Source of the DNA: Heterodontus francisci | Lineage: Eukaryota | Direction of reading: 5' to 3' | Length of the DNA: 64,000 nt | Assembly (NCBI RefSeq): GCF_036365525.1 | Contig: NC_090376.1 | Location: 44,501,157 to 44,565,156, forward strand | Shown here: in pieces, positions 13,693 through 47,650 of the stretch | Position numbering within the stretch: position 1 is the first letter of the stretch | Layout: every line of letters begins with the position of its first letter | The notes under the pieces: generated by a model | What the model saw: only the letters and a program-made list of their open reading frames with translations | The model's database searches: none | Told to the model about the DNA's origin: nothing | Translations under genes and position numbers: made by a program

Positions 13693-13698
13693 TTTATT
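13693..13698 (-). terminator. Candidate polyadenylation signal of the POLR1D-isoform-2 gene (alternative AATAAA at 14187-14192)
   Basis: Minus-strand AATAAA at the end of about 1.2 kb of repeat-poor AT-rich sequence below the stop codon; part of the palindrome TTTATTAATAAA (13693-13704). Confidence 0.45.
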
Positions 13699-14920: not shown

Positions 14921-15206
14921 TCAATAATCTTTTGTGCCCTTGTACTTTTTAGTATTCCTCTTTGAGTCATTTTCCCGTGGAGAAGGAGACCTGTTAGCTT
15001 TCATCCTAGTTTTTGGTCCCTGTTTATATGGTTGGAAGCTGTTTTTGTGTAGCCTTTCTTTTTTCCTTTGTTCCTTCTCATTTAGATCTGAATCCTTAAC
15101 TTCTTCCTTTTGGCTATGGTCATATGTTTGTCTTTGAGACGGTATAGTATTCTTAACAGTATTGATGAGAAACCGTTTGTTGGCTCCTGGAAGAGGACAC
15201 TTCATC
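14921..15206 (-). CDS. POLR1D: Terminal coding exon 3 (MKCPLPGANKRFLINTVKN...DY*)
   Basis: Acceptor ttttttttaacag|G ATG AAG TGT; ORF track 14921..15205; conserved MKCPL..NKRFLINT.KNT.PS followed by a basic low-complexity tail; TGA at 14921-14923. Confidence 0.95.
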
Positions 15207-15399
15207 CTGTTAAAAAAAATACAAAGTATGGATATATTTTACTATTTGGAGAAGAAGGAGAAACACAAAAAAAAAAGATTTAATTTGCAAACAGTTTAAG
15301 TGACTGTTTGATTCAGGACCTCAAATTTCAGCTTAGGTCATTAAAGTGACATATTGAGTAAATTCCCAACTGGGTGAAAAGTCTTAGTTCTTTCTAAAT

Positions 15400-15930
15400 A
15401 ATTTACAGTGAAACAAAATCTTGCATAAGAAATTATACTTATATGGAATGTTTAACAATGCAAAAGTTTCCAAGTTGTTTCGCAAAAGGAATAATGGAGA
15501 ATGTGCAGGAGGTGGGAAAAATAGATTAGGGGAGCTAACCAAAGGCACAGATGAAGTAGGTTTTGAGCAGACCTTTAATAGTAGTAAAGTTATGGAGGGC
15601 TTTAGAAAGAATTTCACAGTGCAAGGTTAGACGTTCTAAAACTGAGGTGGAATGGGGACTGCCACATAAACAAATGTCCCGATTTAGAAGAGCAGAGGGT
15701 ATAAATTAGGACATAGAACTGGAAGATGCTACAGAAGTAGGGTGGCGCACGGTGAAAGGATTTGTAAGTGTGGATGAGAATTTTGATTTCAATGTTCTGT
15801 AGGTTTGAGAGCCAAGTGAAAATCAGCGAGGATTGGAGTGATGGCAGCACTGCACTTAGTACAGGATAGGATGTAGAGTGTGAAGTATAAGAGGAGTTGA
15901 GATTTGTATAGGGTAGAGACAAGGAGGCCT
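15400..15930 (-). mobile_element. Degenerate L2 LINE 3' fragment
   Basis: WL..LQNIEIKILIHTYKSFHRAPPYF resembles the L2 ORF2 C-terminus (WLP...RI.FKIL...FK.LHG.AP.YL). Confidence 0.6.
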
Positions 15931-15937
15931 GCATAAA

Positions 15938-16273
15938 ATCATAGATCATAGATAGATACAGCAGTGAAACAGGGCTTTTGGCCCACCAAGTCTGTGCCAA
16001 CCAACAACCACCCATTTATACTAATCCTACATTAATCCCATATTCCCTACCACATCCCCACAATTCTCCTACCACCTGCCTACACTAGGGGCAATTTACC
16101 ATAGCCAATTTACCTATCAACCTGCAAGTCTTTGGCTGTGGGAGGAAACCGGAGCACCCGGCAGAAACCTATGCGGTCACAGGGAGAACTTGCAAACTCC
16201 GCACAGGCAGTACCCAGTACTGAACCCGGATCGCTGGAGCTGAGAGGCTGCGGTGCTAACCACTGTGCCGCCC
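15938..16273 (-). mobile_element. HE1-type V-SINE (intron 2)
   Basis: Reverse complement of the HE1 head, V-domain and tail. Confidence 0.92.
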
Positions 16274-16671
16274 AAATCTTTCCTATTTCAAGATTGTAAT
16301 TTTTGTAGATGAAATTGCATACACACAAAGTACAAAGAACAAACAACCTTACTGTTTTTCCTTATTTTTGAATATTCCAGTTTAAGACCGACAATGGCTT
16401 AACTTTCAAGTCCTAAATGTTTCACATATTTAAATACAGGAATATTTGAAAGTTAAAAAATGTTTTAAGCTGACCACATGGTTGCTGTCATTGGAACTGG
16501 CATTATCATTTTTGCAGCATTTGAGATTAGACATTGAAATACCACATTTTATTGCATAGCCTTGACTCCCAAGACCCTCAGACTGTTCATTACTTTTAAG
16601 ACATTACTTTTTGTGTCTAGTTTAAGACCATTGACCCTAATCAAGCAAGCTATAATAAAATAAAAATGCAG

Positions 16672-17890
16672 GAAGATTTTTGACGAGGTAGCAGAGAAGG
16701 CTGATGAGGGTGATGCAGTTGATTTGGTGTATATGAACTTCCAAAAGGCATTTGATAACGTGCTACATAAAAGACTTGTCAGCAAAGTTGAAGCTCATGG
16801 AATAAAATGGTTAGTGGCAGCATGCACATGAAGTTGGCTGAGTAACAAAAAACATAGCATAGTGGTGAACTGTTGTTCTTCGGACTGGAGGAGGTTATAC
16901 AGTGGGGTTCCCCAAGGGTTGGTACTAGGACCACTGCTTTTCTTGATATATATTAATGACCTAGACTTGGGTGTCCAGGGCACAATTTCAAAATTTGGAG
17001 ATGACAGAAAACTTGGAAGTATTGTGAATGGCGACTTCAAGAGGATGTAGACAGGCTGATGGAATGGTTGGACTTGTGGCAGATGAAATTTAATGAAGTT
17101 AAGTATGAAGTGATACATTTTGGTAGGAAGGACGAGGTGAGGCAATAAAAACTAAAGGGTACAATTCTAAAGTGGGCGCAGGAGCAGAAGGTATATGTGC
17201 ACAAATTGTTGAAGGTGGCAGGGCAGGTTGAAAAAGTGGTTAAAAAGGTATACGGGATCCTGGGCTTTATAGGGAGAGGCATAGAGCACAAAAGCAAGCA
17301 AGTTATGTTGAACCTTTATAAAACACTGGCTCAGCCTCAACTGGAGTACTGTGTCCAAATCTGAGCACTGCACTTTAGAAAGAATGTGAAGGCTTTAGAG
17401 AGGGTGCAGAAAAGATTTACAAGAATGGTTCCAGGGATGAGGGGCTTCAGTTGTGTGGAGAGATTGAAAAAGCTGGGGTTGTTCTTCTTAGAGAAGAAAA
17501 GATTGAGAGCAGATTTGATAGAGGTGTTCAAAATCATGAAAGGTCTAGAAAGAATGGATGGAGAAAAACTATTCCCACTGATGGAAGGGTTGAGAACTAC
17601 AGGACACAGATTTAAGGTTATTGGCAAAAGAACCAAAAGCAACATGAGGAAAAATGTTAACGCAGTGAATGGTTACAATTTGAATGCACTGTCAGAGGAT
17701 GGTGGAAGCAAATTCAATTGCAGCTTTCTAAAAGGGATTTAGATAAGCATCTGAAGGGATAAAAATTGCGGGGCTACAGGAAAAGGGCGGTGGAGCGGGA
17801 CTAGCTAAATTCCTCTTGCAGAGAGCTGGCATGGACTCGATGGGCTGAATGGCTTCCTTCTGTGCTATAACCATTCTATGATTCTAAACA
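16672..17890 (+). mobile_element. CR1 LINE 3' fragment
   Basis: GVPQGLVLGPLLFLIYINDL, KFGDD and ALERVQKRFTRM; CR1 3' UTR ending TTCTATGATTCTA. Confidence 0.9.
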
Positions 17891-20163
17891 TTAGATTTAG
17901 TGAGGGATAGTTTCTTCAAAAATAGTCAAGAAAACCACAGAACATTATCCTGGACATTTCTTTTGACATTTATAGTTTTGATTTTACACAATGGTTAAAA
18001 AAAATACAATTCTGGTCATGGAATAGCTAAGGGTAACAACTTCACTGAAGATAGCTTCCACATAACAATTAATGTCCTTTTGCTTTAGTAGGGGCACTTG
18101 ACACAGTAGCCCTCTGAAGGCCACTATCTGAATGCAAAAACATCACAAGCAAGTAGGACTTCTGTGAAATGCAGATTTTGACATTTGGAAATTATAAATC
18201 ATGCATTGTATTTCCATAAGCTCTACCAGCTTTCATATTTGGAGGAGAGATAAGAACACATTTTGAAGATACCATGCTGAGAAAAAAAAAAGTCATAATA
18301 TATAAATTACTTACAGTTCTCAAAATACTTAAGTGCATTCTAGGTACACAGAACAGCTCTCCATTTTAAAATAATACGCATTCTTAACAGACAATTTGTG
18401 CGCAAGGAGGAAGTGGCCAGATTGGTTAATTGCTTTGACTGAATGAATAATGTCATACTGCCATCAGAAAGTTCTTTGTGGATAAATGTGAGAGTTAACA
18501 GTAATACTGGACTTTGTATCTGCACCTTTGCCAAAATGAAGAGAAAGAAAATCTATGGGACCATGCCAATTTTATTTCTCCAATCTCTTGCTGGATTTTT
18601 ATAATAGTCACAGTACACTAGACATCCATTATTATTTGGGCGATTGATGAAAAATTTACATTTATTTTATCAGTTCTTCATATACATCACTGAAATGTCA
18701 GTGGATCTGCAATATTTGGTGTTTTATAAACAAGTACAGAAAACCTCAAAACAGCCAAGAGTTAAATCACAGGGGAGGGAAGATACTCAATTACGTTTGA
18801 CAAATGCAATACTACCCAAGGGCAACATAAGCAGGCAGCTCCTTCGCAAAGCTTTTTAAATTAGAATATTCAAGGTTGAAGCTCTTCAGAGAGACATGAA
18901 GTATGAAAAAAAGCATACCTGTAGGGCAGCAGACTGTTTCCAGTTCAGGAGTTCAATATTGGATGAATGAAATAAATAATGCAATACAGATTGAAAAACT
19001 ATCAGGGAAAAGTACACGACCCTGTATAGGAGCCTAAAAATCATCTTAGTGCTTGACCAGATCTAAAGATACTTGGCTGGTGGATAAATTCTACCAAGTG
19101 TACAAGCTAGAAATTATCGGAGATGACGTATTCAGAGGATGAGAAAGATGTATAATTCCAGGCAGGTCAGAATGCTTGAGAGCTGCTCCATGAACTCTGT
19201 CATGCCCCACATCTGCAGAGAGAGCAAATATCTTGCTTTGGCAGATGTATTGGTGGAGGCTCTTCTTCTCAAAGGGAATGTGCCAGCAGACTCTCAGTAG
19301 TATCACTATAGGATGGGAAAGCTTGATCAACCATTCTGTCGAAAAGCTCTTCAGGAGCACCTCAATTACAGTATGTCACACTTTATGTGGTATTGTATGA
19401 AAGGTGGTATACCAATGTGATCAGAAGCCAGCATTGCCCGTTGTGCCACAGCTAATAAGGTTGTCAGAAACTATTACTGTAGGCTCTGACAATCTCATCT
19501 GGGAGTGACCATGCAGACCTATGCTTTCAGGGTCTGAAAGTGAGCTACAGCTCTGATCCATGGGCATATTCCTTGCAAGCATCTCCAGCAGTGCCATCTT
19601 GACCTCAGCAACCATCCAATAAGGGTCTGGATGCTGGACAGCACTGTCACTTGTCCACAGACTTATTCCTGTATCTAAGGATTCTTCTCTCTTAAACTTG
19701 CCCTGTCATTTCTTAACCCCCTACCTCATCTGCCATGGCAAAGGTTGCTGATGGGTTAAGATGCTTTTTAAGGCTCTGCAAAAGTCTTCTGATTGCATGC
19801 CCTCTCTACTGTGACATAACTCTTTAACGGTCTGACTTGACACAGTTTTCCTCTCTTACCAGTTGTCTCATCCAAGGTGCAGCTTCCGACTGAAGTTGGG
19901 AATAATGATACAACTGATCTTCAACGAGAAAATCAAGTACTATTTGCATTTGAAATTCAGGTAGGACCTAAAAGCACTGCAAATGATCTTAGAACTGACT
20001 TACCTACAGGCAAAATTGGTCCGAATGTCTCGACTCCTTTGCATTTCAGTTGCATGTTGTACTGCACTGTAAGATTCCATTATCATTTTGTATATTACAC
20101 CAATCTTCTTAATTGTATTATTTTGCAATTGGTGAATTTATTTAGTTTCAAGCATATTCTTAC

Positions 20164-20238
20164 CAGCCCATGGGTCCCATAGTTTCAGCCCTGGCTTTTC
20201 CACGCTTTGCCTCTGTAAGAAGTTCTTCCACAGCTTTT
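20164..20238 (-). CDS. POLR1D: Coding exon 2 (KAVEELLTEAKRGKARAETMGPMG + split W codon), 75 nt
   Basis: Minus strand: ttttgttttaaaatag|A AAA GCT GTG ... ATG GGC TG|gtaaga. Near-identical to human KAIEELLKEAKRGKTRAETMGPMGW. Confidence 0.95.
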
Positions 20239-20408
20239 CTATTTTAAAACAAAATTGTTTAATTGATGGAAATTAGAAGTTGAATATACAATTACTAAGT
20301 TTCCTACCATCTTCCCTCCTACCCTACTTCCAACCCTGATATGTTTGTTCCAGATTTCTTCATTCCTCAGTAAAAAGGTGTAGAGTAACATCACTAATCA
20401 AAGATAAA

Positions 20409-21044
20409 GGGCTGGATTTTGCAGTCAGCAGCGAAGCAATGGTGTTCACCGCTGACCTCGAAGAAAGCGCTCTTCGTGGCATTGATTTCCACTTTTCCAA
20501 CAGCATAAATCTGGTGCCAAGTCAAGAGGATCTCCAAGAGTCCAGCAGCAGTGAAATCAGCAAGCTGGGTAAGCAGCCAAAAACACTGAAGTATTCTATG
20601 AGACAGCAAAACAGGAAGTTAAAAACACTGATTATCTATCACCTTTAATTTAAATTTTCAGATAGCAAAATAAATGAATATGATTGGATTAATATAGAAG
20701 CTAAAATATCAAACTTTAAAAAATTAAATATGTGGAATGATATCATAATGGAGAAATTGACATTCTACAGTTATAAAATCAGATTTATAGGGCGAATAGA
20801 GGTGTTTAGCAATAATTATCAAGTCAATACGCTGTTAAAAACCCAGTTACACATTCTTCAATAAGGTGTACCTTTCTGAAGGGTTTTTACAGTGAGGCCA
20901 ACAGCGTATAAGTGGAAGTTCTTGTCAATTTATTGATGGCTTTGGGATTGCACTCTGAAGGGACCTCAACAGTGCACTCTCTGGAGGACTGTAGAATCAC
21001 TGGCAGCAATTTCTGCGTTATTCTGCCAAATCAAAATCCGGACC
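20409..21044. mobile_element. Non-autonomous TIR element (MITE-like, possibly Harbinger-derived)
   Basis: Ends GGGCTGGATTTTG and CAAAATCCGGACC; internal 20750-20900 recurs inverted at 27275-27425. Confidence 0.6.
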
Positions 21045-22054
21045 ATTGTTTGAACTTACTTTTCAATTTAAATCCTTTTTTATGCTTTAAGCTGAAGACC
21101 TGCATAGCAGGAAATAAAATAAATTACACAGAACGTACAATGATCCATATTATGAGGCTACATTTTCATATCGACATTTTAACTAACCTGCGCCAGACAT
21201 TGTTAAAGCCATGCTCAAAGTAGAATTCAGGAAACAGTCTGTCAGTACTGTGGCTCTTCAAGTTTTTTTGTGCTGAAGGAATGCTAAATTCACAGTCAGA
21301 ATAGCATGTGCTGTGACCAATATTTGCAAGGGCTAATAGTACCTAATAGCACTGAGAATGGATACTTTGAAAGAGTTAATTTACAATAACTTTCATTCTT
21401 GAGGTCCTGACTTATTCTACATACCTGCCATTCATTCATGTTTTGCGTGGGCAGTCAGTATTTTGGAAGACTGCTGACGTTTACAAATAAGAATCCATGG
21501 GATTTAAATTCAAATGGTTTCAGCATTGATTATGAGGAAGATTCCAATCCTCTGCTTCTCAGTGTGTTAATTCCAATCAGAGCAACACAACAATAGACTC
21601 CAATCACATCTTCCAGAAAAAAAAAAATTTCAGGAAATTAAGTGATTTTTGACAGTCTATTCAAATTGCTCTTCCCTACTCAGCATTATGATGCTGTGTT
21701 ACTGCTGTAAAGCAGTGATCTTTACAGGTTGATTAGTTGTAAAGTGTTGGTACAGTAACAGGCATTTTTACTGTTAATCAGTTGTGTAGTTATAGGATGC
21801 CTCCCTGCAGTGTTAATTTTTTAACTTATTTTCAATTAAAGTACTTGAATTTGCCAACAATAAAATGTAGAATCCAATGCTCATTGTACACGAAGACTGT
21901 CTCTGTTTTCCATCGATATAAATGTTTTGGACCTTGTTTCTGCCTGTCCACATCTGCAGCAAAAGAAACAGGAATTTAAGGTTCTCGCAACCCTTGAGAA
22001 TTGTCTAATGAGTTCACTTGACTCAGTTCTTCTCTGCAAGCACTGCCACCTCAC

Positions 22055-22740
22055 ATAAGTGAAAGTTAGTGTGCAGGTACAGCAAGCAATTTGGAAGACA
22101 AATGATATGTTGGCCTTTATTGCAAGGAATTGGAGTACAAGATTAAAGAGTTCTTGCTACAATTATACAGGGGTTTGGTGAGACCACACCCAGAGTACAG
22201 TATGCAGTTTTGGTCTCCATATTTAAGGATGTACTTGCATTGGAGGTCGCACAGCGAAGGTTCACTAGATTGGTCCCTGAATTGAGAGGGTTGTCCTATG
22301 ATGAGAGGCTGAGTAAATTGGGTCTATATTCTTTGGAGTTTAGAAGAATGAGAGATGATCTCATCGAAACATACAAGATTCTGAGCGGGCTTGACAGGGT
22401 AGACACTGAGAGATTGTTTCCCCTGGCTGGGAAATCTAGAACACAGGGGCAGAGTCTTAGGAAAAGGGGCCGATCATTTAGGACTGAGATGAGGAGAAAT
22501 TTCTTCACTCAAAGGGTTGTGAATCTTTGGAATTCTCTACCCCAGATGGTTGTGGATGCTTCATCAATTAATATATTTAAGGTTGAGATAGAGAGATTTT
22601 TGGACTCTCGGGGAATCAAGGGATATGGGGAACAGGCAGGAACGGAGTTGAAACCGAAGATCAGCAATGATCCTATTGAATGGTGGAGCAGGCTTGATTG
22701 GCCGTATGGTCTATTCCTTCTCCTATTTCTTATGTTATTT
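22055..22740 (+). mobile_element. CR1 LINE 3' fragment
   Basis: ORF 22210..22818 contains [21 protein letters not shown] and FFTQRVVNLWNSLP. Confidence 0.9.
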
Positions 22741-22959
22741 CAGGTGGGCATCCTTCTTCAAAACCAACAATCGACATTACTGATTAAACTCATAAGTAAG
22801 TACTATATTATATTCTAAAACTGAGCATTCGGGTCTCCATCTACCATAAGAGTGGATATTAGTGAAACGAGGCTGACAACAAACCCCATCAAACTTAATG
22901 ATTGCTGAGTAATACTAGACTATGGAAAGAGAGCAGCCAAATCTGGTGCAGCCAAAGAA

Positions 22960-23720
22960 GCACAGAAGGTTGTTGATTAAATTCAATACAGACAAATGCA
23001 AAATAATGTACATTGGAAGAATGCATGACAGACACACTTATGGATGAAGTAAAGAGGATGAAAGACATATGTGAGTTATGGTAGGCTCCATATTCAGCAT
23101 GAACCAGTCGTTAAGGAGCAGAATAAATAAAGCAAATAGAATTCTGAACTCTTGTGCATCTCACACTTCCTTTGTCCCACCATTAGTGGACTTGCCTTCA
23201 GCAATCCAGGCCCTAAATTGCTCCCCGTCTCCACCTCTCCTCCTTTACGGTGCTCCTTAAAACGTACCTCTTTGACCAAGCTTTTAATCACTTGTTCTAA
23301 TATTTCCTCCTTTGGTTTGGTGTCAATTTAAAAAAAAATCTTATTACATTCCTGTGAAGCATCTTAGGACACTATATAAATGCTAGTTGTTGTTAAATTG
23401 AACCAAATCAGCCGGGTATTGTACTGAGACCATCATGTTGAAACTGCCCTGGTCAGATGCAGCCTGAGTACTGTGTTCCATTTGGTCACTAAAACACAAG
23501 GAGAAACATCCAGCCTTGAAAATTGCGCACAGAAGACTCACAGGCTGATTGCTATGGTCAGAAGACTGAGATATGAAGATAGGTTAGAAAAATTTGGACT
23601 CTTAAGCCTTGAAATATATCTTTATAGATGCCATGTATAATACAAAAAGGTAAATTCAGAATATTCAAAATTATACATCAACTGCTGAACAGGACGACAT
23701 ACGTACACACTGGTAAAAGG
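22960..23720 (+). mobile_element. Very old CR1 fragment interrupted by an L2 3' tail (about 23165-23395)
   Basis: Degenerate GAGTACTGTGTTCCATTTGG CR1 block; L2 tail CTCCTTAAAACGTACCTCTTTGACCAAGCTTTT...CTATATAAATGCTAGTTGTTGTT. Confidence 0.55.
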
Positions 23721-24504
23721 CTGGACTGGTTGTAACTGATGACTTTATGATATCTCCTTCATTGTACCTAACTGCTTCTTGAATGCTTCCAATATGCTAT
23801 CCCTAAGGCTATACCAGATATTAATCATTGTTTGTATGAATAAATGTTTTTTGACATCAAGTTGAGCACTAGCTTGGCCTGAGCAGTGTTTATTAGGTTT
23901 ATGAGGACAGATTAACCTTTGCACTGGCACGATCAAGTGCTGACAAAAGTCAGTCATTGGTACCATTCAATAAGAAAATCAACAACGTCCAACAGACCTC
24001 AAATTCATCCTTCAACTCTAGCCAGTGGTAAATCTTTTGGAACAGGTCTAACAACTATGAGACCTAGGATGTTGCTCACTTCAAGACAACTAGATGCTGC
24101 ATCGCCATACAGATTTCTATTTTGGCAACAAGACCTGACCTTGTTGAATTTTTTTAGTTGCAGTATCTACAGCAAAGATGACTAGAATTTGAATGGCTAA
24201 GCCCTGGAGGTATCTGTCTCCAGTGCTGACTGAACATATAGATCTGAGAAAACAGCTCCTATCTTTATGGATTTCACCTTAGCAATTGCTTTATGTACTC
24301 CAATAAAGCAAGTGTGGTGCAGGCTTGGCAACAGCTGCCTGTGATGGTTGAAGGAGAATGTATGCTCCACAAAATCACTTCAGATACCTTCCATTTCTGA
24401 TATGATCCACAATTTTTTTTTTATTGTCAGCACTATTAGCTTTCAGATTCGGTCTTCCTACCAAGAGAAAGAAAATTAGTTTTCACAATTGCAAATGGTG
24501 ATTC

Positions 24505-24835
24505 AAACAATTGCAGTTCCAGGCACCCTGTGCCCGATTGTCAGGGCCTCCCCCCGGTGCGCTGAGAGGCCACCAGGTATCACTGGGTGGCCTTTCAAGT
24601 CTACCAGACACCCATTTGCCACGGGCAAAATACCTGTGGAGGCAGGCGAAGGCCCTTAAGTGGCCATGATTGGTTTGGGGCGGGCAGCCCATTTCACGCC
24701 CCTCCCGCGGCCCACGTAAAATGGGGCAGAGGCGGGAGCGAGCTAGGAAGGCCTCCTGGAGCCTCTCGCTCAATTTTACGCCACCCCCTCCCCCGGTACC
24801 ATCTGGCTCGCTGGGGTGGCGTAAAATTCCAGCCC
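24505..24835. mobile_element. GC-rich end of a TIR element with a subterminal hairpin
   Basis: Ends AAAATTCCAGCCC; perfect 16-bp inverted arms AATTTTACGCCACCCC (24772-24787) and GGGGTGGCGTAAAATT (24813-24828). Confidence 0.6.
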
Positions 24836-24851
24836 ACATTTCTACCTTCAT

Positions 24852-25131
24852 AACAGCAAAATACTGTGGACGCTGGAAATCTGAAATAAAAACAGAAAGT
24901 GCTGGAAATACCCAGCAGGTCTGGGAGCATCTGTGGAGAGAGAAGCAGAGTTTATGTTTCAGGTCTGTGACCTTTCATTTTTACATTTCTACTTTCCTTC
25001 AGTTCTGAAGAGTCATATCTGACTTGAAGCGTTAACTCTGTTTCTCTCTCCACAGATGCTGCCAGATCTGAGTACATTCAGCACTTTCTGTTTTTATTTC
25101 AGACTTCCGGCATCCGCAGTATTTTGCTTTT
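24852..25131. mobile_element. Foldback element, probably an inverted Penelope-like pseudo-LTR
   Basis: About 120-bp inverted arms (GCAAAATACTG.GGA.GCTGGAAATCTGAAATAAAAACAGAAAGTGCTG and its reverse complement) with decayed hammerhead-like cores near the inner ends. Confidence 0.75.
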
Positions 25132-25659
25132 ATTATAATGTAGGTAGAGTTTGCTTGTGTATCAGATAAGGCGATTGTTTCACCCATGCTAATTACTAGT
25201 TGCTACAATTAGTAACTTATGCAACCATTATAATTACTCTGCACAAATTAGAATATCTCTTATCTTAGCAGCTTCTAAGTGTCTGAAGCAAAATCAGTGA
25301 TGAAATTAACCTACGGAATAATTTAATTTTGATAACATATCTGATGTTACTCTTAAGGTTTTTACTTTCATGTGTAAATGTTAGTGTGCTATCCAGTTAA
25401 ATTTCTGCTATTACCCTTATTCCCTCCCCACCCCCTTAAAAATTGATTCAAGGTACAATTTTGATATACTCTCAAAATGTTCGCTTACCTTTAAGCAATT
25501 CATGGGAATAGCCCAGAAAACAAAATGGGAAATATGATAACATCTTTATAAGCATGAATGGTATTCCAGTAATCCATTATTCTAGCATGCTTGATCATGG
25601 GGATTGTTACTTTTCAGACTTACTAAGACATCCTGCCTTGATGGAATGTATCATATTAT

Positions 25660-31816: not shown

Positions 31817-34170
31817 GAACATAGAACATAGAAAATACAGCACAGAACAGGCCCTTCGGCCCACGATGTTGTGCCGATCCTTTGTCCTCTGTCAAGGACA
31901 ATTTAATCTATACCCCATCATTCTCCTTTATCCATATACCTATCTAAAAGCCGTTTGAAAGTCCCTAAAGTTTCTGACTCAACAACTTCCCCAGGCAAGG
32001 CATTCCATGCCCCGACCACTCTCTGGGTAAAGAACCTTCCCCTGACATCCCCCCTATATCTCCCACCCTTCACCTTAAATTTATGACCCCTTGTAACGCT
32101 TTGCTCCACCCGGGGAAAAAGTTTCTGACTGTCTACCCTATCTATTCCCCTGATCATCTTATAAACCTCTATCATGTCACCCCTCATCCTTCTCCGTTCT
32201 AACGAGAAGAGGCCTAGAATGTTCAGCCTTTCCTCGTAAGACTTATTCTCCATTCCAGGCAACATCCTGGTAAATCTCCTCTGCACCCTCTCCAAGGCTT
32301 CCACATCCTTCCTAAAATGAGGCGACCAGAACTGCACACAGTACTCCAAATGAGGCCTTACCAAGGTCCTGTACAGCTGCATCATCACCTCACGGCTCTT
32401 AAATTCAATCCCTCTGCCAATGAACGCTAACACCCCATATGCCTTCTTCACAGCCCTATCCACTTGAGTTGCAACTTTCAACGATCTATGCACATAGACC
32501 CCAAGGTCTCTCTGCTCCTCCACATGCCCAAGAACCCTACCGTTAACCCAGTATTTTGCATTCGTGTTTGTCCTTCCAAAATGGACGACCTCACACTTTT
32601 CAGGGTTAAACTCCATCTGCCACTTTTCAGCCCAGCACTGCAACCTATCCAAGTCCCTTTGCAGACGACAATAGCCCTCCTCGGTATCCACAACTCCACC
32701 AACCTTTGTATCATCTGCAAATTTACTGACCCACCCTTCGACTTCCTCATCCAAGTCGTTAATAAAAATCACAAACAGGAGAGGACCCAGAACTGATCCC
32801 TGTGGCACGCCACTGGTAACTGGGCTCCAGGCTGAGTATTTACCATCTAAGACCACTCTCTGCCTTCTATCAGTTAGCCAATTCTTAATCCAACTGGCCA
32901 CATTCCCCACTATCCCATGCCTCCTGACTTTCTCCATAAGTCTACCATGGGGGACCTTATCAAATGCCTTACTAAAATCCATGTACACCACATCCACTGG
33001 TTTACCCTCATCCACTTGCTTGGTCACCTGCTCAAAGAATTCAATCAGGCTTGTGAGGCAAGACCTACCCCTCACAAAACCGTGCTGACTGTCCCGAATC
33101 AAGCAGTGTCTTTCCAGATGCTCAGAAATCCTATCCCTCAGCACCTTTTCCATCAACTTGCCTACCACCGAAGTAAGACTAACTGGCCTGTAATTCCCAG
33201 GGTTGTTCCTATTCCCTTTCTTGAACAGGGGCACAACATTTGCCACCCTCCAATCACCTGGTACCACCCCCGTCAACAGAGAAGATGAAAAGATCATTGC
33301 CAGCGGCTCTGCAATTTCATCCCTTGCTTCCCATAACATCCTTGGATATACCCCGTCAGGCCCGGGAGACTTGTCTATCTTCAAGTTATTCAAAAACCCC
33401 AACACATCTTCCCTCCTAACGAGCACTTCCTCGAGCTTACCAGTCTGTTTCACACCGTCCTCTTCAGTAATACACCCCTTCTCATTCGTAAATACCGAAG
33501 AGAAGTACTCATTCAAAACCTCACTTATCTCTTCCGGCTCAACACACAGTCTCCCGCTATTGTCCTTGACCGGACCTACGGTCCCCCTAGTCATCCTCAT
33601 ATTTCTGACATACGCGTAAAAGGCCTTGGGGTTTTCTTTTATCCTACCCGCCAAGCATTTTTCATGCCCTCTCTTAGCTCTCCTAATCCCTTTCTTCAGA
33701 TCCTTCCTGGCCATCTTGTATCCCTCCAGAGCTATGCCTGTGCCCTTTTTCCTCAACCTTATATACGCATCCTTCTTCTTCCTAACAAGACTCTCAACCT
33801 CTCTTGTCAACCACGGTTCCCTCACATGACCATCCCTTCCCTGTCTGACAGGGACATGCTTATCAATGGCCCCTACTATCTGCTCCTTGAAAAAGTTCCA
33901 CATTTCGACCGTGCCCTTCCCTGCCAGCATATGCTCCCAACTTATGCTCCTCAGTTCCTGCCTGACAGCATCATATCTACCCTTCCCCCAATTGTAAACC
34001 TTGCCCTGTTGCACATACCTATCCCTCTCCATTACCACAGTGAATGCTACAGAATTGTGATCACTATCTCCAAAGTGCTCGCCCACCAACAGCTCTATCA
34101 CTTGCCCTGGTTCATTACCTAGTACCAAATCCAATATTGCCTCCCCTCTGGTCGGGCAGTCTACATACTG
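31817..34170 (-). mobile_element. Young 5'-truncated CR1/HER1 LINE
   Basis: Uninterrupted ORF2 from the EN C-terminus to the stop; 3' UTR GGCCGAAGGGCCTGTTCTGTGCTGTA shared with the HE1 tail; (TTCTATG)n end. Confidence 0.97.
31918..34170 (-). CDS. CR1 ORF2 fragment (EN C-terminus plus complete RT); open frame but no native start
   Basis: 738-aa ORF track entry extends upstream as QYVDCPTRGEAI; motifs GDSDHN, DFSKAFD, GVPQGS, FADD. Confidence 0.85.
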   Translation of the reverse strand, partial: QYVDCPTRGEAILDLVLGNEPGQVIELLVGEHFGDSDHNSVAFTVVMERDRYVQQGKVYNWGKGRYDAVRQELRSISWEHMLAGKGTVEMWNFFKEQIVGAIDKHVPVRQGRDGHVREPWLTREVESLVRKKKDAYIRLRKKGTGIALEGYKMARKDLKKGIRRAKRGHEKCLAGRIKENPKAFYAYVRNMRMTRGTVGPVKDNSGRLCVEPEEISEVLNEYFSSVFTNEKGCITEEDGVKQTGKLEEVLVRREDVLGFLNNLKIDKSPGPDGVYPRMLWEARDEIAEPLAMIFSSSLLTGVVPGDWRVANVVPLFKKGNRNNPGNYRPVSLTSVVGKLMEKVLRDRISEHLERHCLIRDSQHGFVRGRSCLTSLIEFFEQVTKQVDEGKPVDVVYMDFSKAFDKVPHGRLMEKVRRHGIVGNVASWIKNWLTDRRQRVVLDGKYSAWSPVTSGVPQGSVLGPLLFVIFINDLDEEVEGWVSKFADDTKVGGVVDTEEGYCRLQRDLDRLQCWAEKWQMEFNPEKCEVVHFGRTNTNAKYWVNGRVLGHVEEQRDLGVYVHRSLKVATQVDRAVKKAYGVLAFIGRGIEFKSREVMMQLYRTLVRPHLEYCVQFWSPHFRKDVEALERVQRRFTRMLPGMENKSYEERLNILGLFSLERRRMRGDMIEVYKMIRGIDRVDSQKLFPRVEQSVTRGHKFKVKGGRYRGDVRGRFFTQRVVGAWNALPGEVVESETLGTFKRLLDRYMDKGE

Positions 34171-34649
34171 AGACTTGTTTTATAATAAACAGATAATTTT
34201 GTTGTTTATTAAAGAAACTTGGTGTGTTTTATTCTGGAGTAAAAATAGAGTCTATGATTGATTGTATCGGTAAGTGAGAAAAAATTTAAATATATGTTGT
34301 GACCCATGGAGAAGTGGAACGAGAATAAACAGTGCACTCCTCCCGCCTCAGTCGTAACAGTTGGGATGTGGACATTGCTGCCCTTGAGGTGGTCAGGGTG
34401 GGCCTTCTTCTTGAACCACTCTGTAGTGGTTTAATATAATTGAGTGGCTTGTTAGGTCACTTCAGAGGGCAGTTATGAGTCAACCATGTAGGTGTAGCCG
34501 GACTGGCTAAGGACAGGTTTCTTTAAAAATTCAACAATTTTTTTTATTCTTGGGATGTGAGCATCATTGGCAAGGCCAATATTTATTGCCCATCCCTAAC
34601 TGTCCTTGAGAAGGTGGTGGTGAGCTGCCTTCCTGAACTGCTGCAGTTC

Positions 34650-36417: not shown

Positions 36418-36906
36418 AGGCAGTTAAGAGTCAACCACATTGCTGTGGATCTGGAGTCACGTGTAGGCCAGACTGCGTAAGAACGGCAGATTTCTCCACC
36501 CCGAAGGACATTAGTGAACCAGATGGGTTTTTACAACAATTCCGTAGTTTCATAATCATGATTAACGAGACTATATTTTTATTCCAGATTTATTAATTGA
36601 ATTTAAATTCTCCCAGTGCCATGGTGTGAATTGAACGAATGTCTCTGGAGCATTAGTCCGGGCCTCTGAATTACTAATCCAGTAACATTACTACTATGCT
36701 ACCCTCCCAGGTCAATTTTAGTGGTGGTAGTAAAAAAAAAATTAAGATTTTTAAAAAACTGAATTAAAACTGCATGATGGGGTTTGAACCCTCATTTTCT
36801 GATTAGTCCAATCCTCTTCAATATCAGTCTAATAGAGTAACCACTATGCTATTGTACTCTTGGCTTACTGGAAAAGGAGCTTTATCTGGCATATAACCAT
36901 GCATCA

Positions 36907-39900: not shown

Positions 39901-40093
39901 TAAGACTTGTTTTATAATAAATTGATAATTTTGTTGTTTATTAAAGAAACCTGGTTGGTGCGCTTTATTCTGGGATAAAGAGAGTCTATGATTGACCACA
40001 TTGTTAAGTGGGAAAAAATTTAAATATATGTTGTGACCTGTGGAGAAGTGGAACTAGAATAAACAGTGTACTCCTTCCGCCTCGGGCGTAACA
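36907..40093 (+). mobile_element. Solo LTR with 4-bp TSD ATCA, containing a CR1
   Basis: ATCA|TATTACGAGTGC...GGGCGTAACA|ATCA; homologous to 30244-34359. Confidence 0.85.
37509..39768 (-). mobile_element. 5'-truncated CR1/HER1 LINE with few lesions
   Basis: ORFs 39044..39733, 38776..39006 and 37772..38779 are consecutive ORF2 pieces; (TTCTTTG)n tail. Confidence 0.95.
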
Positions 40094-40239
40094 ATCACCT
40101 GGGAACAATTGATGCATCAGTATGTTCCAAAAATGAATAAAATATCAAACATGATCATCCTCATTTTAAGAAAATCAAACAAAAAATAAAATATGAAATT
40201 CACCTAACACATTTTAAAAGGAAGAAAATATGCCAATGG

Positions 40240-41045
40240 AAACATAGGCACGTAGGAGTACATAGGAATAGACGCAAGCTGGTCGAGTCTGTTCTGTCAT
40301 TCAGTGAGATAATGGCTGATCAGCAATGCCTTTGCCCATATTCCTTAATATCTTTGGCTAACAAAAATCTATCAATCTCAGATTTAAAAATTATCAACTG
40401 ATCCAGCAGCAGTTGCTGCTTGCAGAAGAGTTCCAAACTTCTATAACCTTTTGTGTATAGAAGTGTTCTTAACGTCACTCCTGAAAAGTCTGGCTCTTAA
40501 CTTTTAGGCTTTGGCCCCTAGTCATAGACTCTTCAACCAGCGAAAATAGGTTCCATCTATCTACCCTATCTGTTCCCCTTAATATCTTGAAAACTTTGAT
40601 CAAATCTCCCCTTAGCTTTCTAAATTCCAGGGCAACAACCCTAATTTGTGCAATCTCCTCATAGATTAAACCTTGCAGTCCAGGTATCATTCTGGTAAAT
40701 TTATGCTGCACTCCTTCCAAAGCCCATATATCCTTTCTAAGGTGTGGTGCCTAGAACTGCTCACAGTCCAGATGTGATCTAACCAGGGCTATGCATCGCT
40801 AAAGAATTTCTTCTACCCCCTTGAATTCTAGTCCTCTAGATATAAAGGCCAACATCCATTAGCCTCTTTGATTATTTTCTGTAACTTCATTACATTTGAA
40901 TGATCTAGGTACCTGGAGCCCCAACTATCTTTGGACCTCCGCTTTTTCTAGGTTTTCACCAATTATAAAGCACCCTGTTCTACCTTTTTTAGCTCCAAAG
41001 TAGATGACCTCCCACTTGTCCACACTGAAATCTATTTGCCAGTTT
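40240..41045 (-). mobile_element. Old CR1 3' fragment
   Basis: EGVQHKFTRMIPGL and LRGDLIKVFKIL. Confidence 0.8.
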
Positions 41046-41536
41046 TGCTTAAACTCTGCAATTTTATACACAACTTGCTCTGCCATATCTTTGTCTGGAT
41101 TACTTACAAGTTTGTTGTAAGTTTTCTTTTGCTACACACTACTTATACTAAGCACTAAAACACTGGGCAAAAAATGTTAATACTTACTGCCTGAAGCTTA
41201 CACAAACCACAGGTATTGCGGGCAAAATGCAGCACTGCATTTTCACTCTCACCAGATTCCCCACTTATGCACTCTGTGTGTTTAAGATAACATGCTTCCT
41301 TTGTACATTAAACGAGACAAAAAATTCTAATTAATATTTTGCCTGTCCTATCAGACACCTTCCATTTCAGGTATCTCTTTTCTGCTGGGAACTGCTCTGC
41401 TGATGAGAGAACGGTAGTAAGCAATCCAACTGAAATTCTTTAAATCAGCATTAGGATGGTTACCCCTTGATGCCAATCACGTATCTCAAATCAGGAAAAA
41501 TTAGGAAAAAGCTGAATCTACATAGGGTAAAGAAAG

Positions 41537-42580
41537 TGTTATGGCCAGGTAAAGAGGAGGTCTCAGGCTCCCCTTTCGCCCCTTCTCTGGTTTGACCGCA
41601 ACAAGGATTTATCCTTTTTTAAACACAGTGGTTGAACTTAGCACCTCTGTGAGCGCTTGCTCCTGTTCTTCTAATGTAATTGCAAAAGAAGCAGACAGGT
41701 TTTCTTGCGTTTAAACAAGAATGATGTTAGCTTATTACTCTTAACACTCTAAACACAGCTAAAATGCTAATATACGCTACACATTCACACACACATTCAC
41801 ACGAGAGTCACACACAAATAGATTACAGATGGAAAACAGATTTGGTGGTTGGATTAAAATCTGGAATAAATGGAATTTAAATACAGTTTTGAGTCTCAAG
41901 TCCGCAGCTGAAGTTGTATTCCTGAAGTCCTCGCTGAGCCACGTGCACGGTGGTGGGCTTGCTTTTGTCAGATGTCCTGAAGGCAGAACAGGGGTTCCAC
42001 CTGTGGTGGTCTGTAGGCTTGAGTGGGGGCTTTCCAGTTGCAGCCAGGCCATCACGTAATATTTACTGGAGAGAGAGATAAAGAGAGCGAGAGAGAGACC
42101 TGCCTCATTGATGGCTTTTCAGTGACTCCTATGCATTGTCTGTGACAAAGCTTACAGTCTCTCCAGAGCTGCGCAGGCAGTCACATGACACTATCAAACC
42201 CCTTTGTTCTGTTAATGAGGTTTTTCTGGAATCTTCTCTGAGATTCAAGGCGTTACACCTCAAGACATCCAGTCACATTTGGAGGGGATTGGCTCTTTCA
42301 AAGTCAATGGGTGTAGATGGCCCTGACCACCGTGTTGATAAGGCCATTCCAGGTAATTTAATCACGGAGAGCACCTCATGGTTCTGGCCAGGTTGAATCA
42401 GACTTGTCGTCTCCAATCTGATCTTTTGGTGTTTCAAGTGTAAATTGTAGTGGCCATCTTGGCTGCCAGTAACTTTTTTTTTAGTAAAGTTACTTGTAAG
42501 AATTTCCAGTAAAAGTGTAATGCAAGGTTCCAACCGATGAAATTAATATTTCCCATTTGGCATATCGGGTTTTCATGACA
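41537..42580 (-). mobile_element. Intact solo LTR (1044 bp) with 4-bp TSD AAAG
   Basis: AAAG|TGTTATG...CATGACA|AAAG; TG...CA termini with a short inverted repeat. Confidence 0.85.
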
Positions 42581-42890
42581 AAAGCCTTGCATTTGTATAG
42601 TGCCTTCCACGACCTCAGGACATCCTAAAGTGATTTTCACCAATTAAGTACTTTTGAATTGTTTCTTTCCAGTGTAACTTCTGTTGTAATGTAGGAAATG
42701 CGACAGACAATTCTGAGCACAGCAAGGTCCACAAACGGCAATGTGATAATATTCAGATTTTTAGTGGTGTTGGTTGAGGAATAAATATTGACCATGACTC
42801 CCCTGCTTATCTTTGTAGTAGTGCTGCAGGATCTTTTCATTCACATGAGAGGGGGGACAAGACCTTGGTTTGACACCTCATCCGATAAAC
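42581..42890 (-). mobile_element. Deu-domain SINE (SacSINE1/AmnSINE-like) fragment
   Basis: GGATCTTTT..TTCAC.TGAGAGGG..GAC....CCTTGGTTTGACACCTCATCCGA resembles the reverse Deu core; L2-type tail TTGCATTTGTATAGTGCC. Confidence 0.7.
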
Positions 42891-43065
42891 TAACATTCAG
42901 GACAGATCCAGATAAAAATCAAAATGTCCTGTAGAGTGACTTGCTGACAACTATTGAAAGTATAATCCTACACTTTTCTTATATTAAGAAAAAACAGTTC
43001 CAATGTTATCAATAACAAACAACACTCCTTATTCCATAAACATAAATTCATCAACTAGTACACAT

Positions 43066-46000
43066 GGGGGAGGTGGTGGCGTATGGTAATATCACTAGAC
43101 TAGTAACCCAGAGCCCCAGGCTAATGCTTTGGGGACATGGGTTTGAATCCCACCACGGCAGATGGTGAAATTTGAATTAAATTAATAAATCTGGAATTTT
43201 AAAAAAGCTAGTCCAATGGTGACCATGAAGCCAGTGTCAATTGTTGTGACATCCCATCTGGTTCACTAATGTCCTTTAGGGAAGGAAATCTGCCATCCTT
43301 ACAGCATCGACCTAGGCACCTGAAACGACAATGGCAAACCCAGCCCTGTCGAACCTGCAAAGTACTCCTTACTAACATCTGAGGGCTTGTGCCAAAATTG
43401 GGAGCACTGTCCCACAGACTAATCAAGCAACAGCCTGATATAGTTATACTCATGGAATCATACCTTGCAGACAATGTCCCAGACTCCATCATTACCATCC
43501 CTGGGTATGTCCTGTCCCAGCGGCAGGACAGACCCAACAGAGGTGGCTGCATGGTGGTATACAGTCAGGAGGGAAGTTGCCCTGGGAGTCCTCAACATTG
43601 ACTCATGGGATCAGGTCAAACATGGGCAAGGAATCCTCCTGGTGATTACCACATAACTGATGAATCAGTGCTTCTCCATGTTGAGCACCAATTGGAAGAA
43701 ACACTGAGGGTAGAAAGGACAAAATATGTACTCTGGGTGGGGGACTTCAATGTCCATCATCAAGAGTGGCTCAGTAGCACCACTACTGATCAAGCTGGCT
43801 GAGTCCGAAAGGACATAGCTACTAGACTGTGTCTGCAGCAGGTGGTGAGCAAACCAAAAAGAGGGAAAAACCTACTTGACCTTGTCCTCACCAATCTGCC
43901 TGTCACAGATGCATGACATGTCCATGACAGTATTGGTAGGAGTGACCACCGTACAGTCCTTGTGGAAATGAAGGCCCGTCTTCACACTGAGGTACCCACC
44001 ATCGTGTTGTGTGGCACTACCACCGTGCTAAATGGGATAGATTTCGAACAGATCTAGCAATGCAAAACTGGGCATCCATGAGGTGCTGAGGGCCATCCGC
44101 AGCAGCAGAATTGTATTCAACCACAATCTGTAACCTCATGGCCTAGCATATCCCCCACTCTACCATTACCAATAAGCTGAGGGACCAACCCTGGTTCAAT
44201 GAAGAGTGCAGGAGGGCATGCCAGGAGCAGCACCAGGCATACTTAAAAATGTGTCAGTCAGGTGAAGCTACAACCCAGGACTACTAGCATGCAAACAGTG
44301 GAAGCAGCATGCAATAGACACAGCTAAGCGATCCCACAACCAACAGATCAGGTCTCAGCTCTGGAGTCCCGCCACATCCAGTTGTGAATGGTGGTGGACA
44401 ATTAAACAACTGACAGGAGGAGGAAACTCAACGATGGGGGAGCCCAGCACATCAGTGCAAAAGACAAGGCTGAAGCATCTGCATCCATCTTCATCCAGAA
44501 GTGCCAAGTGGATGATCCATCTCGGCCTCCTCCTGAGGTACCCAGCATCACAGATGCCAGTCTTCAGCCAATCTGATTCACTCCACGTGACATCAAGAAG
44601 CAGCTGAAAGCAGTGGATACTGCAAAGGCTATGAGCCCTGACAATATTCCAGCAATAGTGCTGAAGACTTGTGCTCCAGAACTAACTGCTCCCCTAGCCA
44701 AGCTTTTTCAGTACAACACTGGCATCTACCCAACAATGTGGAAAATTGCCCAGGTATCTCCTGTGCACAAAAACAGGACAAATCCAACCCGGCCAATTAC
44801 CGCCCTATCAGTCTACTCCCTATCATCAGCAACGTGATGGAAGGGGTTGTCGACAGTGCTAACAAGCGGCACTTGCTCAGCAATAACCTGCTCAGATGCT
44901 CAGTTTGGGTTCCACCAGGGCCACTCAGCTCCTGACCTCATTACAGTCTTGGTCCAAACATGGACGAAACAGCTGAACTCCAGAGGTGAGGTGAGAGTGA
45001 CTGCCCTTGACATCAAGGCAGCATTTGAGCGAGTATGGCATCAAGGAGCCCGTGCAAAACAGGAGTCAATGGGAATCACGGGGAAAACTCTCCGCTGGTT
45101 GCAGTCATACCTAGCACAAAGGAAGGTGGTTGTGGTTGTTGGAGGTCAATCATATCAGTTCCAGGACATCACTGCAGGAGTTCCTTAGGGTAGTGTCCCA
45201 GGCCTAATCATCTTCAGCTGCTTCATCAATGACCTTCCCTCCATCATAAGGTCAGAAGTGGGGATGTTCGCTGAAAATTGCACAATGTTCGGCACCATTT
45301 GCAACTCCTCAGATACTGAAGCAGCCCATGTCCAGATGCAGCAATACCTAGACAGCATCCAGGCTTGGGCTGATAAGTGGCAAGTAACATTCGTGCCACA
45401 AAAGTGCCAGGCAATGAACTTCTCAAACAAGAGAGAATCTAACCATCTCCCCTTGACATTCAATGGCATTACCATCGCTGAATCCCCCACTAACATCCTG
45501 GGAGTCACCACTGACCAGAAACTGAACTGGACCAGCCACATAATTGCTGTAGCTACAAGAGCAGGTCAAAGGCTGGGGAATTCTGCAGCGAGTAACTCAC
45601 CTCCTGTCTCTCTGTCCACTAACTACAAGGCACAAGTCAGGAGTATGATAGAATACTTTCCACTTGCCTGGATGGGTGCAGCTTCAATAACTCTTAAGAA
45701 GCTCGCCACCATCCAAGACAAAGCAGCGCCCTTGACTGGCACCATAAACATCACCTTCAACATTCACTCCCTCCACCACCAACAAACAGTGACAGTGTGT
45801 ACCATTTACAAGATGCACTGCAAGAACACATCAAGGCTCCTTCAACAGCACCTTGCAAACCCACAACCTCCACCTAGAAGGACAAGGGCAGCAGGTGCAT
45901 GGAAACACCACCATCTGCAAGTTCCCCTCTAAGCCAAATGCTATCCTGACTTGGAAATATATCGCCCTTCCTTCACTGTCGCTGGATCAACATCCTGTAA

Positions 46001-46155
46001 CTCCATCCCTAACAGCACTGTGAGTGTACCTGCACCAGATGGACTGCAGCGGTTCAAGAAGGTATCTCACCACCACCTTCTCAAGGGCAATTAGGGAAGG
46101 GCAACAACTGCTGGCCTTGCCAGTGACACCCACATCCCATGAAATAAATAAAAAA
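43066..46155 (+). mobile_element. About 3.1-kb CR1-group (possibly Zenon-like) EN-RT LINE with a tRNA-like SINE head and no ORF1; coding region decayed
   Basis: Head 43066-43302 matches the SINE at 6694-6930. EN motifs TNI*GL, PDIVILMES, GDFN, LDLVLTN, SDH; RT motifs NYRPISLL, QFGF, LDIKAAF, GVP*GS, FAEN; tail matches the SINE tail, then poly(A). Confidence 0.88.
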
Positions 46156-46181
46156 CAGAATCAGGCAGTGAAATTGCAGCT

Positions 46182-46854
46182 CACACTCGACATGTTCCCA
46201 AGTGCGTGGACGGGTTGGCGGGACGTGACATGTTTCTTGCTGTGGTGATGCCCACAAATCTTGGACATATCACGACCCCAGCAATGCTCCTTAGTTAGTC
46301 AATGCCTGTATAACGTCAAGCTAAAAATACAGATTATTTGGACATCATATTGCTGTTTCTGGGACCTTAGATCACTGCTGAAATGAAATCAGTACTGTGC
46401 CAGTAGCTACAATACAAAGGCAACATAGGGAAGCTCTCAACCCTCAAAATTAAATGGAATATTTTCAAAGAACGTAGACTACCTGTAGTGACACTTCACA
46501 TTTTTATTTGATTTTCAAAACATCAGCAGTAATTGAAAGATCATAAGCCACACAGTATACATACGCATGCAATGTTGCACAGGTGAGGCTGGTTATGTGA
46601 GTGACATGTTATGGCGTAACGTGCCAGGTTTCTGAACTCTAACACCTGCCTGGCTAACTCTGGCATTCAGCGTGAAGGCAACTTGACTTTATACAGGCAC
46701 TGACTGACCAAGGTCCGCTGCTGGGGCCGTGACATGTCCAAGATCTGTGAGGTGGGCATCACCACAGCAAGAAACACGTCACACCAACCTGTCCACCCTG
46801 TATGTATATATACATACTCACATATATACACACACTTGGAACATGTCAAGCGTG
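46182..46854. repeat. Inverted repeat (arms 46182-46320 and 46682-46854) at the 5' end of intron 1
   Basis: TGTTTCTTGCTGTGGTGATGCCCAC versus GTGGGCATCACCACAGCAAGAAACA, with similarity along the whole arm; the right arm carries an extra TA/CA microsatellite. Confidence 0.9.
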
Positions 46855-46949
46855 CGGAGGCCTGAAACAGAGGCAACACAGAAAAGGTAATATGAAAAGC
46901 TTTAAATCGGTTTTGTTTTAAATTGGTCGTTCAGGCACACCAGATAAGA

Positions 46950-47650
46950 ACAGCAGGCCCTGTCCCGCCGATCACCTGGAGAACCTGGTCTCTATTTGAA
47001 AGGATTGAGGACGTTTCGCATTGTTTACCTCTCGAGCTCGCCATCTTTCTCCATGACAACCCCTCGCGCCTCCAACGTCGGTTTAACCTCACCAGTTGTT
47101 CGGTTATTTTTCAAAACAGCGTCTCAATGCACGAGCACTTTCCGGTTCCAAACCGACCTAGCGCGAGCACCGCGAAAGACCAGCTTCGCCCCGCCCCTAC
47201 ACACAAAGTATAAGGATGGCCTATCTCATCTGCCTGATCACAGCAAAATAAAACGGTCTATAGAAACAGTTGGTTGAACCATAAGACATTAAGCGTATAT
47301 CTGCGGGAAATATTCGACACTTTCTTGAGGAAATTTCTCTCTCCCTCTCCTCCACAAATCCTCCCCCTTTCATTCATACAGGCGACGTCTGAAGACAGAA
47401 AGATTTCTCCAGGCCGGGTTCGCTCCTAACTTGCTGGGGGGAAGGGGGCAGAATCTCTTGCTTTCTGCTCTCTGATTGGATTTCCCCACGTCCTTGCGTC
47501 TTCCAGGGGGCAGGAACGCGAGGTATCTCGTGTTACAATTGGACAATTCTCCTGTCAATTGGCGGATGGAGCATTTCAACCAAGCAAGTTAGTTTGACTC
47601 GTAATTTTGTGCAAATCTTAAGCATCGAGACCAAGTTTTTGGCGAAAAAT
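46950..47650. promoter_or_regulatory. CpG-rich, TATA-less, probably bidirectional promoter
   Basis: CpG density far above the rest of the window; GC box CCCCGCCCC near 47189-47198; ETS-like TTCCGG near 47140; three ATTGG (CCAAT) near 47476, 47538 and 47558; YY1-like AAGATGGCG overlapping exon 1. Confidence 0.75.
47029..47054 (-). CDS. POLR1D: Coding exon 1 (MEKDGELE + split R codon), 26 nt
   Basis: Minus strand reads gttgtc ATG GAG AAA GAT GGC GAG CTC GAG AG|gtaaac; lies in a CpG-rich promoter; resembles human MEEDQELER. Confidence 0.9.

Follow-up and report, generated by a model that had tools for sequence, protein, structure and literature searches.

Two kinds of described system bear on the vertebrate gene POLR1D. 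As an example of overprinting, Neme and Tautz (2013; PMC3616865) presented Polr1d as the gene of AC19 (RPAC2), a subunit of both RNA polymerase (Pol) I and Pol III, with two acquired exons and a highly conserved arrangement. Retrogenes are the other kind. Chimeric retrogenes lie in host introns, as mouse Taf9 does in Ak6 (PMC4772013), rodent Utp14b in intron 1 of Acsl3 and primate UTP14C in ALG11 (PMC5750009), and the orphan retrogenes include RNF113A, TRMT12 and MARS2 (PMC4772013, PMC3548309). The second protein of the POLR1D locus, isoform 2, has a UniProt accession of its own, P0DPB5 (PMC12249828). We analysed 64,000 nucleotides of the horn shark Heterodontus francisci (contig NC_090376.1, positions 44,501,157 to 44,565,156, hereafter the window), which carry a gene for an isoform 2-type protein of family PF28113.

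Our reading, to which we assign a probability of about 75%, is that the shark PF28113 gene stands alone, and that placental POLR1D arose from an intron-less, likely mRNA-derived AC19 copy in intron 1 of the corresponding gene, called the host below. Two unrelated genes have thus probably merged in human POLR1D, the Treacher Collins gene, and the merger likely dates from early in the history of placental mammals. Judged from protein sequences, the AC19 copy probably captured the host promoter together with exon 1 and its nine codons, and its parent was likely supplanted.

The window gene is a minus-strand chain of 26, 75 and 286 nucleotides, 387 in all, that encodes 128 residues and a stop, with GT/AG at all splice ends. 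Its product agrees letter for letter, over all 128 residues, with XP_067889657.1 ('protein POLR1D-like isoform X1', Heterodontus francisci), and a homology search with exon 3 gave a 100% match named 'protein POLR1D-like' from the same species. Within residues 1–57, 48 of 57 are identical to a bat orthologue, the comparison with human isoform 2 running via other placentals only. The protein carries the N-terminal core, of about 57 residues, that is conserved in PF28113. All 25 of the 25 homologues have this family as a precomputed assignment, including the cluster to which the window protein belongs, and it scored 0.98 in the Atlas, where it is named POLR1D; our local Pfam copy assigned no family to the window protein. 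The features of the locus are listed below.

13693–14920, minus strand: 3′ untranslated region (UTR), ending near 13705 to judge from the sizes of two contigs; AATAAA from 13698.
14921–15206, minus strand: exon 3, coding part, 286 nucleotides; last part of the core, with the N-K-R-F-L-x-N helix, then the basic low-complexity tail.
15207–20163, minus strand: intron 2, 4,957 nucleotides.
20164–20238, minus strand: exon 2, 75 nucleotides; long helix of the core and G-x-x-G-W.
20239–47028, minus strand: intron 1, 26,790 nucleotides; abundant fragments of long interspersed nuclear elements (LINEs), AC19 coding sequence absent.
21425–21435, minus strand: alternative first exon of RefSeq isoform X2, coding part, from the RefSeq record and the sequence.
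23058–24457, minus strand: minor alternative exon, likely terminal, spliced from the exon-1 donor (acceptor 24458/24457); lower end estimated from contig size.
47029–47054, minus strand: exon 1, coding part, 26 nucleotides; first nine codons, the piece common to placental AC19.
Contig cover to 47110 in two runs and beyond 47300 in one, minus strand: 5′ UTR of exon 1.
46900–47500, no strand: likely promoter, CpG-rich over the gene start; CpG observed/expected 0.94 against 0.30 window-wide.

Splicing out of exon 1 was followed in the contigs of four sequencing runs, which are RNA by a tool's guess rather than on record, represent at most two samples and were used for junctions alone. The join from 47029 to exon 2 was found in three of the four runs, the fourth giving no contig at this site; the junction of exons 2 and 3 was taken from RefSeq and contig sizes. 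One contig in one run joined exon 1 to 24457, at a depth of 23.9 against 305.9. As a hidden AC19 exon this second junction was ruled out, since its frame stops after 15 codons in all. The dead-end product does show an exon-1 donor open to capture by intron-1 sequence, a step that the placental copy would have used.

Searches of several kinds found no AC19 coding sequence in the window. The family motif EDHTLGN was absent from all six frames, and tblastn with 120 AC19 proteins gave a best E of 0.041. A hidden Markov model (HMM) of 19 chordate AC19 proteins, run against 4,083 stop-free window segments of at least 8 residues, gave a best E of 2.4, and 18 tiles of 12 residues from the horn shark's own AC19 matched at no more than 7 of 12 positions anywhere in the window. 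No Rpb11-like dimerisation domain of AC19/RPAC2 (PF13656, PF01193) was found at the locus. Horn shark AC19 is XP_067903719.1, on a chromosome-length contig of 107,907,199 bp, and the window gene is on one of 163,047,897 bp. The two genes occupied separate contigs in six of six comparable cartilaginous fish, Heterodontus included (Callorhinchus, 81.2 vs 17.9 Mb; Stegostoma, 114.8 vs 74.9; Rhincodon, 108.6 vs 70.8; Narcine, 216.9 vs 179.7; Carcharodon, at most 169.9 vs 173.5). Cetorhinus and Scyliorhinus were dropped from this comparison, as their records span several contigs and are ambiguous. Because shark AC19 lies on a different contig, these data support the window gene as a stand-alone three-exon gene whose protein is not a polymerase subunit.

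The original prediction, made from the window alone, is borne out on these points: the exon chain, the lack of the AC19 motif in intron 1 (which extends to the whole window), the placing of AC19 at another locus and the independence of the 'isoform 2' gene. Two observations that it had asked for, short AC19 exons below 60 residues in intron 1 and junctions from the exon-1 donor, likewise gave no sign of AC19.

The distribution of the exon-1 peptide was examined in 241 AC19-family records, made up of the best 120 of 444 matches, the best 120 of 267 matches and listed cluster members (for the main placental cluster, 15 of 199). The search was seeded with a metagenome locus and then extended to relatives. 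Two metagenome contigs (L001:1411-1764 and L002) hold uninterrupted animal-type AC19 frames, either transcripts or another intron-less AC19. The peptide was present on 23 of the 241 proteins, from 21 named placentals, including the afrotherians elephant, golden mole and manatee, and two unnamed records with placental signature residues. It was found in none of the 214 non-placental records, with 0 of 12 in marsupials and 0 of 3 in monotremes. Four further placental-type records begin within the linker or right before it. In placental AC19 a linker of 8 residues follows the exon-1 peptide, and next comes, in most records, the methionine with which the protein begins in other groups; marsupial records run to 114–115 residues. 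Host and AC19 proteins have consecutive accessions in two bats, which together with the text of PMC3616865 speaks for two proteins from one locus in placentals.

Individual records touch on the make-up of the placental protein. A degenerate 'RPAC2-like' protein of Molossus nigricans (P0214) carries the exon-1 peptide on a 121-Mb contig, host records reaching 114 Mb; the merged transcript probably gave rise to it as a processed copy. The residues that precede the AC19 start methionine in Chelydra (P0168) are similar to the placental linker, a hint that the linker may be the 5′ UTR of the parent. Two opossum models (P0228 and P0236, Monodelphis; P0257) have unlike C-termini, one ancestral-like and one placental-like, and hint that the placental C-terminus might have arisen by frameshift.

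The shared peptide has its home in the host family. A profile search returned 315 relatives at E ≤ 0.001, 150 of them listed; ten distant ones were looked up, and the seven named came from a coral, a jellyfish, a damselfly, a mayfly, two dipterans and a crab. By these sequence matches the family is older than jawed vertebrates and reaches corals and insects; the predicted conservation across jawed vertebrates holds, but understates its age. In an alignment of 81 members the first 57 residues are conserved, at 61–65% per column against 20% in the tail, with A11, R25, G30, G33, W34, N43, K44, F46, L47 and N49 kept in at least 90% of the sequences. Positions 1–9 fall within this core, coral included, L7 being present in 85%. 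Exon 1 therefore belongs to the host. Several distant predicted host proteins turn to foreign sequence right before the equivalent of exon 2, and such gene-caller errors suggest that intron 1 may itself be old.

These results bear directly on overprinting as described in PMC3616865, in which AC19 would be the original resident that gained two exons, in an ancient arrangement lost in the shark. The text of that paper is in its favour, as is the coral Acropora muricata, where both genes (P0045 and P0432) lie on one contig of 33,923,032 bp. The coral pair was ruled out as a merged gene, there being no common N-terminus, and its co-location is likely due to chance. Against overprinting stand the 214 non-placental AC19 records lacking the peptide, the separate contigs in all six cartilaginous fish, the platypus positions given below (AC19 on chromosome 6, host block on chromosome 20) and the place of exon 1 in the host's conserved core; many independent losses would be needed. 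Nor did a second frame arise at an older gene's locus, because the genes are separate in sharks and their N-termini separate in corals. Overprinting as published is already largely refuted, and we consider it extremely improbable.

Loss of introns from placental AC19 was read from protein variants. The count used the 180 of 241 records that fit the vertebrate-type pattern, 61 being dropped. Foreign sequence was joined exactly before V-Q-A in 27 of 154 records without the placental signature, platypus and echidna included, and in 0 of 26 with it (Fisher p 0.016, for rows that are not independent; one placental record, P0269, is counted among the 154). Placental-signature variants switch at the linker instead. 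Additional non-placental breakpoints follow M-K-N and F-E, and from these patterns the ancestral gene seems to have had at least three introns that placentals lack. Zebrafish polr1d has a first intron (PMC4957770). An uninterrupted placental AC19 reading frame (P0175) was found on a 42,994-bp contig. Together, the breakpoints and this frame provide indirect evidence of a coding part without its parent's introns, as in a retrogene.

A move by DNA-level translocation, with introns lost later and no mRNA step, would also yield an intron-less gene, and the linker could then derive from an exon of the parent, carried along with its acceptor. However, all three breakpoints of other vertebrates are missing in placentals, and simultaneous loss of all introns fits retroposition (PMC4772013), so that we regard translocation as distinctly improbable. 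In a 41-row AC19 tree the placental proteins formed one clade (100/99) inside mammals (95/80), on a stem of 0.22 compared with 0.047 for marsupials; branching among the three mammal groups was weak.

We take POLR1D to lie inside the human block 13:26.1–31.4 Mb. This block corresponds to platypus chromosome 20, opossum chromosome 4 and devil chromosome 3, the last reaching 530 Mb, and PMC7230465 agrees; POLR1D has been mapped to 13q12.2 (PMC8470852). The platypus AC19 contig measures 51,493,492 bp, which is the end coordinate of chromosome 6 in Supplementary Table 8 of PMC8081666. Among the chromosome 6 synteny blocks seen in Table 26 of that paper, 11 of 11 correspond to the X chromosome of opossum, devil and human, and monotreme chromosome 6 is the future therian X (PMC4676107). 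Relative to its platypus counterpart on chromosome 6, placental AC19 has therefore changed chromosome, to the block on platypus chromosome 20, as expected of a retrogene, and a parent in an X-conserved region, as in out-of-X movement, is found at chromosome level only.

Marsupial AC19 occupied contigs of 344–545 Mb in 11 of 11 records with a size, 464.9 Mb in the devil. The marsupial X is smaller than 100 Mb, and the marsupial X blocks seen end near 77 Mb. Marsupial AC19 is thus on a large autosome and not on X and, in the devil, not on the host's chromosome. Since platypus AC19 is on chromosome 6 and marsupial AC19 on a large autosome, both therian lineages have moved AC19 off X, to different places. 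In Lacerta agilis (P0122) AC19 lies on a contig of 47,440,541 bp, which we take to be Z; wall-lizard Z is syntenic with platypus chromosome 6, and AC19 may be sex-linked in lacertids.

A sequence of events can be proposed. The parent would have been a multi-exon AC19 gene on the autosome from which the therian X arose, and a retrocopy would have entered host intron 1 on the placental stem. An acceptor about 24 nucleotides before the old start codon would have joined exon 1 in frame, giving the 8-residue linker and leaving the old start methionine at position 18, where some afrotherians have valine. The X-linked parent would then have been lost. Marsupial AC19 would have reached a different autosome, likely in a separate event. 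The likely driver would be meiotic silencing of X, which would deprive spermatocytes of an essential subunit of Pol I/III; by analogy with the general pattern in PMC4676107, we put the chances of this driver at even. The original prediction had already suggested an AC19 retrocopy that captured promoter and exon 1. Protein-level evidence agrees, but the event is placental and not mammal-wide.

Besides the coral contig, several points weigh against this account. Exon structures and positions of AC19 outside the window were read from protein variants and contig sizes rather than genome alignment, and retroposition from protein variants rather than from a poly(A) remnant or target-site duplication, hallmarks that could have decayed over so long a time. 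The presumed loss of the parent is drawn from finding no ancestral-type placental record and no second marsupial cluster among the best 120 of 267 matches. The listed AC19 records contain no xenarthran, and the devil synteny table rests on an assembly that was not identified. The placental stem of 0.22 may be inflated by terminal columns, the tree joins marsupials with monotremes (94/70, weak), and marsupial AC19 records show no breakpoint. The last point, with several marsupial transcripts giving the same protein, would fit a single exit from X in the therian ancestor to a marsupial-type autosome, the placental copy being a second-generation retrocopy of that gene. So would the absence of an X-linked copy from both therian lineages in the records seen. 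The tree, in which marsupial and placental AC19 do not group, goes against a single exit with weak support. We regard a single exit as rather unlikely, and two separate departures as likelier.

What the host protein does can be approached from its build. AlphaFold predicted a helix at residues 3–34, a loop, a short helix at 44–54 and then disorder, with a predicted local distance difference test score of 86–95 over residues 1–50 and a predicted template modelling score of 0.32. The tail is 28% K/R, and at least two RS/SR dipeptides occur in 51 of 75 tails. Searches for relatives by sequence or fold were negative: two host profiles against PDB sequences gave best E values of 0.52 and 2.1, to low-complexity matches; Foldseek found no match, and the best of VIA-align (Z 4.6) was to generic helices. 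Pfam over the 81 members gave 16 scattered weak families, none in more than two members. PF28113 aside, the Atlas had nothing usable for residues 1–62, and for the whole protein it gave leads only, a plant cluster at 0.88 and an NKAP cluster at 0.82. Adaptors that bind to large RNA-protein machines are built like this, from a short conserved helical peptide and a tail that is basic and disordered. By this analogy the host protein might tentatively be a small nuclear RNA-processing adaptor, whose 57-residue helix-loop-helix would dock on a complex and whose tail would serve RNA or nuclear targeting, though we hold this at somewhat below even. Isoform 2 is present in a nuclear-fraction proteome of HEK-293 cells (PMC12249828). 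Counting against the adaptor are the inclusion of membrane proteins in that list (PMC12249828) and the NKAP-like score of 0.82, which is below the usable level.

A role in ribosome biogenesis is the main rival to the adaptor. Small basic nuclear proteins are often nucleolar, which counts towards a tie of the host protein to Pol I/III or ribosome biogenesis; in that case the merger would have been kept for co-regulation, and not just for a broad promoter. Both frames are kept across placentals, which counts the same way. On the other hand, there is no linkage between the two genes in sharks or platypus, and their products change in opposite directions in the one proteome, RPAC2 up 45.2-fold and isoform 2 at 0.10–0.98 (PMC12249828). 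We consider a functional tie improbable. The fullest version of our reading would be that an essential Pol I/III subunit was forced to leave the nascent X two times, once among marsupials and once among placentals, that it survived in placentals only as a guest in an unrelated gene as old as corals, and that this host is a conserved nuclear RNA-processing factor with a phenotype of its own. We offer it as a conjecture with perhaps a one-in-three prospect.

Elsewhere in the window, intron 1 contains a stop-free LINE reverse-transcriptase frame of 753 residues (31918–34179, minus strand; PF00078, E 1e-36), far longer than the other LINE fragments and probably a young insertion. No LNX2- or GSX1-like frame was seen by eye among window open reading frames of at least 90 residues, an inspection made with no Pfam scan of the flanking frames behind it.

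On that fullest version, lesions in exon 1 of POLR1D, as well as its deletions, amplifications and gene-level read counts, would bear on two unrelated proteins in people and mice. For placentals generally, our reading means that a variant in exon 1, a deletion of the whole gene, a knock-out or an expression value taken per gene would concern both proteins, whereas in fish the same lesions would affect AC19 alone, a clean way of testing each protein. Our reading also brings out a protein that is kept from corals to mammals but hidden beneath a polymerase name at a disease locus. The chimeric, out-of-X retrogenes that replace their parents would gain a core transcription gene, and the overprinting example published in PMC3616865 would be turned round in direction.

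In the literature searched on POLR1D isoforms, retrogenes and P0DPB5, which left out most subscription papers, only PMC3616865 treats this origin. POLR1D does not occur in the main texts of PMC4772013 and PMC3548309; the orphan table and supplements of PMC4772013 lay outside the search and may list it. There were no matches to POLR1D in six supplementary files of PMC2584115 or, file 1 excepted, in those files of PMC4868121 that could be searched, and the available parts of PMC11546311, PMC10513380 and PMC4657279 do not settle its gene structure. The family, the separate database entries, the class of mechanism and the shark gene itself are already known. New here is where AC19 lies: in the platypus it is on chromosome 6, which is the future therian X, and in marsupials on a large autosome.

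Compared with known systems, the window protein is a member of PF28113 (POLR1D), UniProt P0DPB5 and RefSeq 'protein POLR1D-like', and the shark gene is already annotated. The entries seen give a name only, and that name implies a polymerase subunit, which is not what the shark gene encodes. The predicted misannotation as a polymerase subunit lies mostly in the gene name; RefSeq, PF28113 and P0DPB5 already keep the proteins apart. Polr1d in PMC3616865 is the same locus, with a common start and a second protein also dated as old (phylostratum 5); there AC19 is the resident and the arrangement conserved, whereas here AC19 is a late arrival and the arrangement placental. With the chimeric retrogenes the locus shares an intron-less copy that uses host promoter and exons, and the UTP14 parent is X-linked too. 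The UTP14 genes differ in that the X-linked parent is kept and the copies are testis-limited, while at POLR1D host and copy have a coding exon in common and the parent seems to be gone. In that respect POLR1D would resemble the orphan retrogenes, in which a retrocopy replaces its parent and is driven from a CpG-island promoter.

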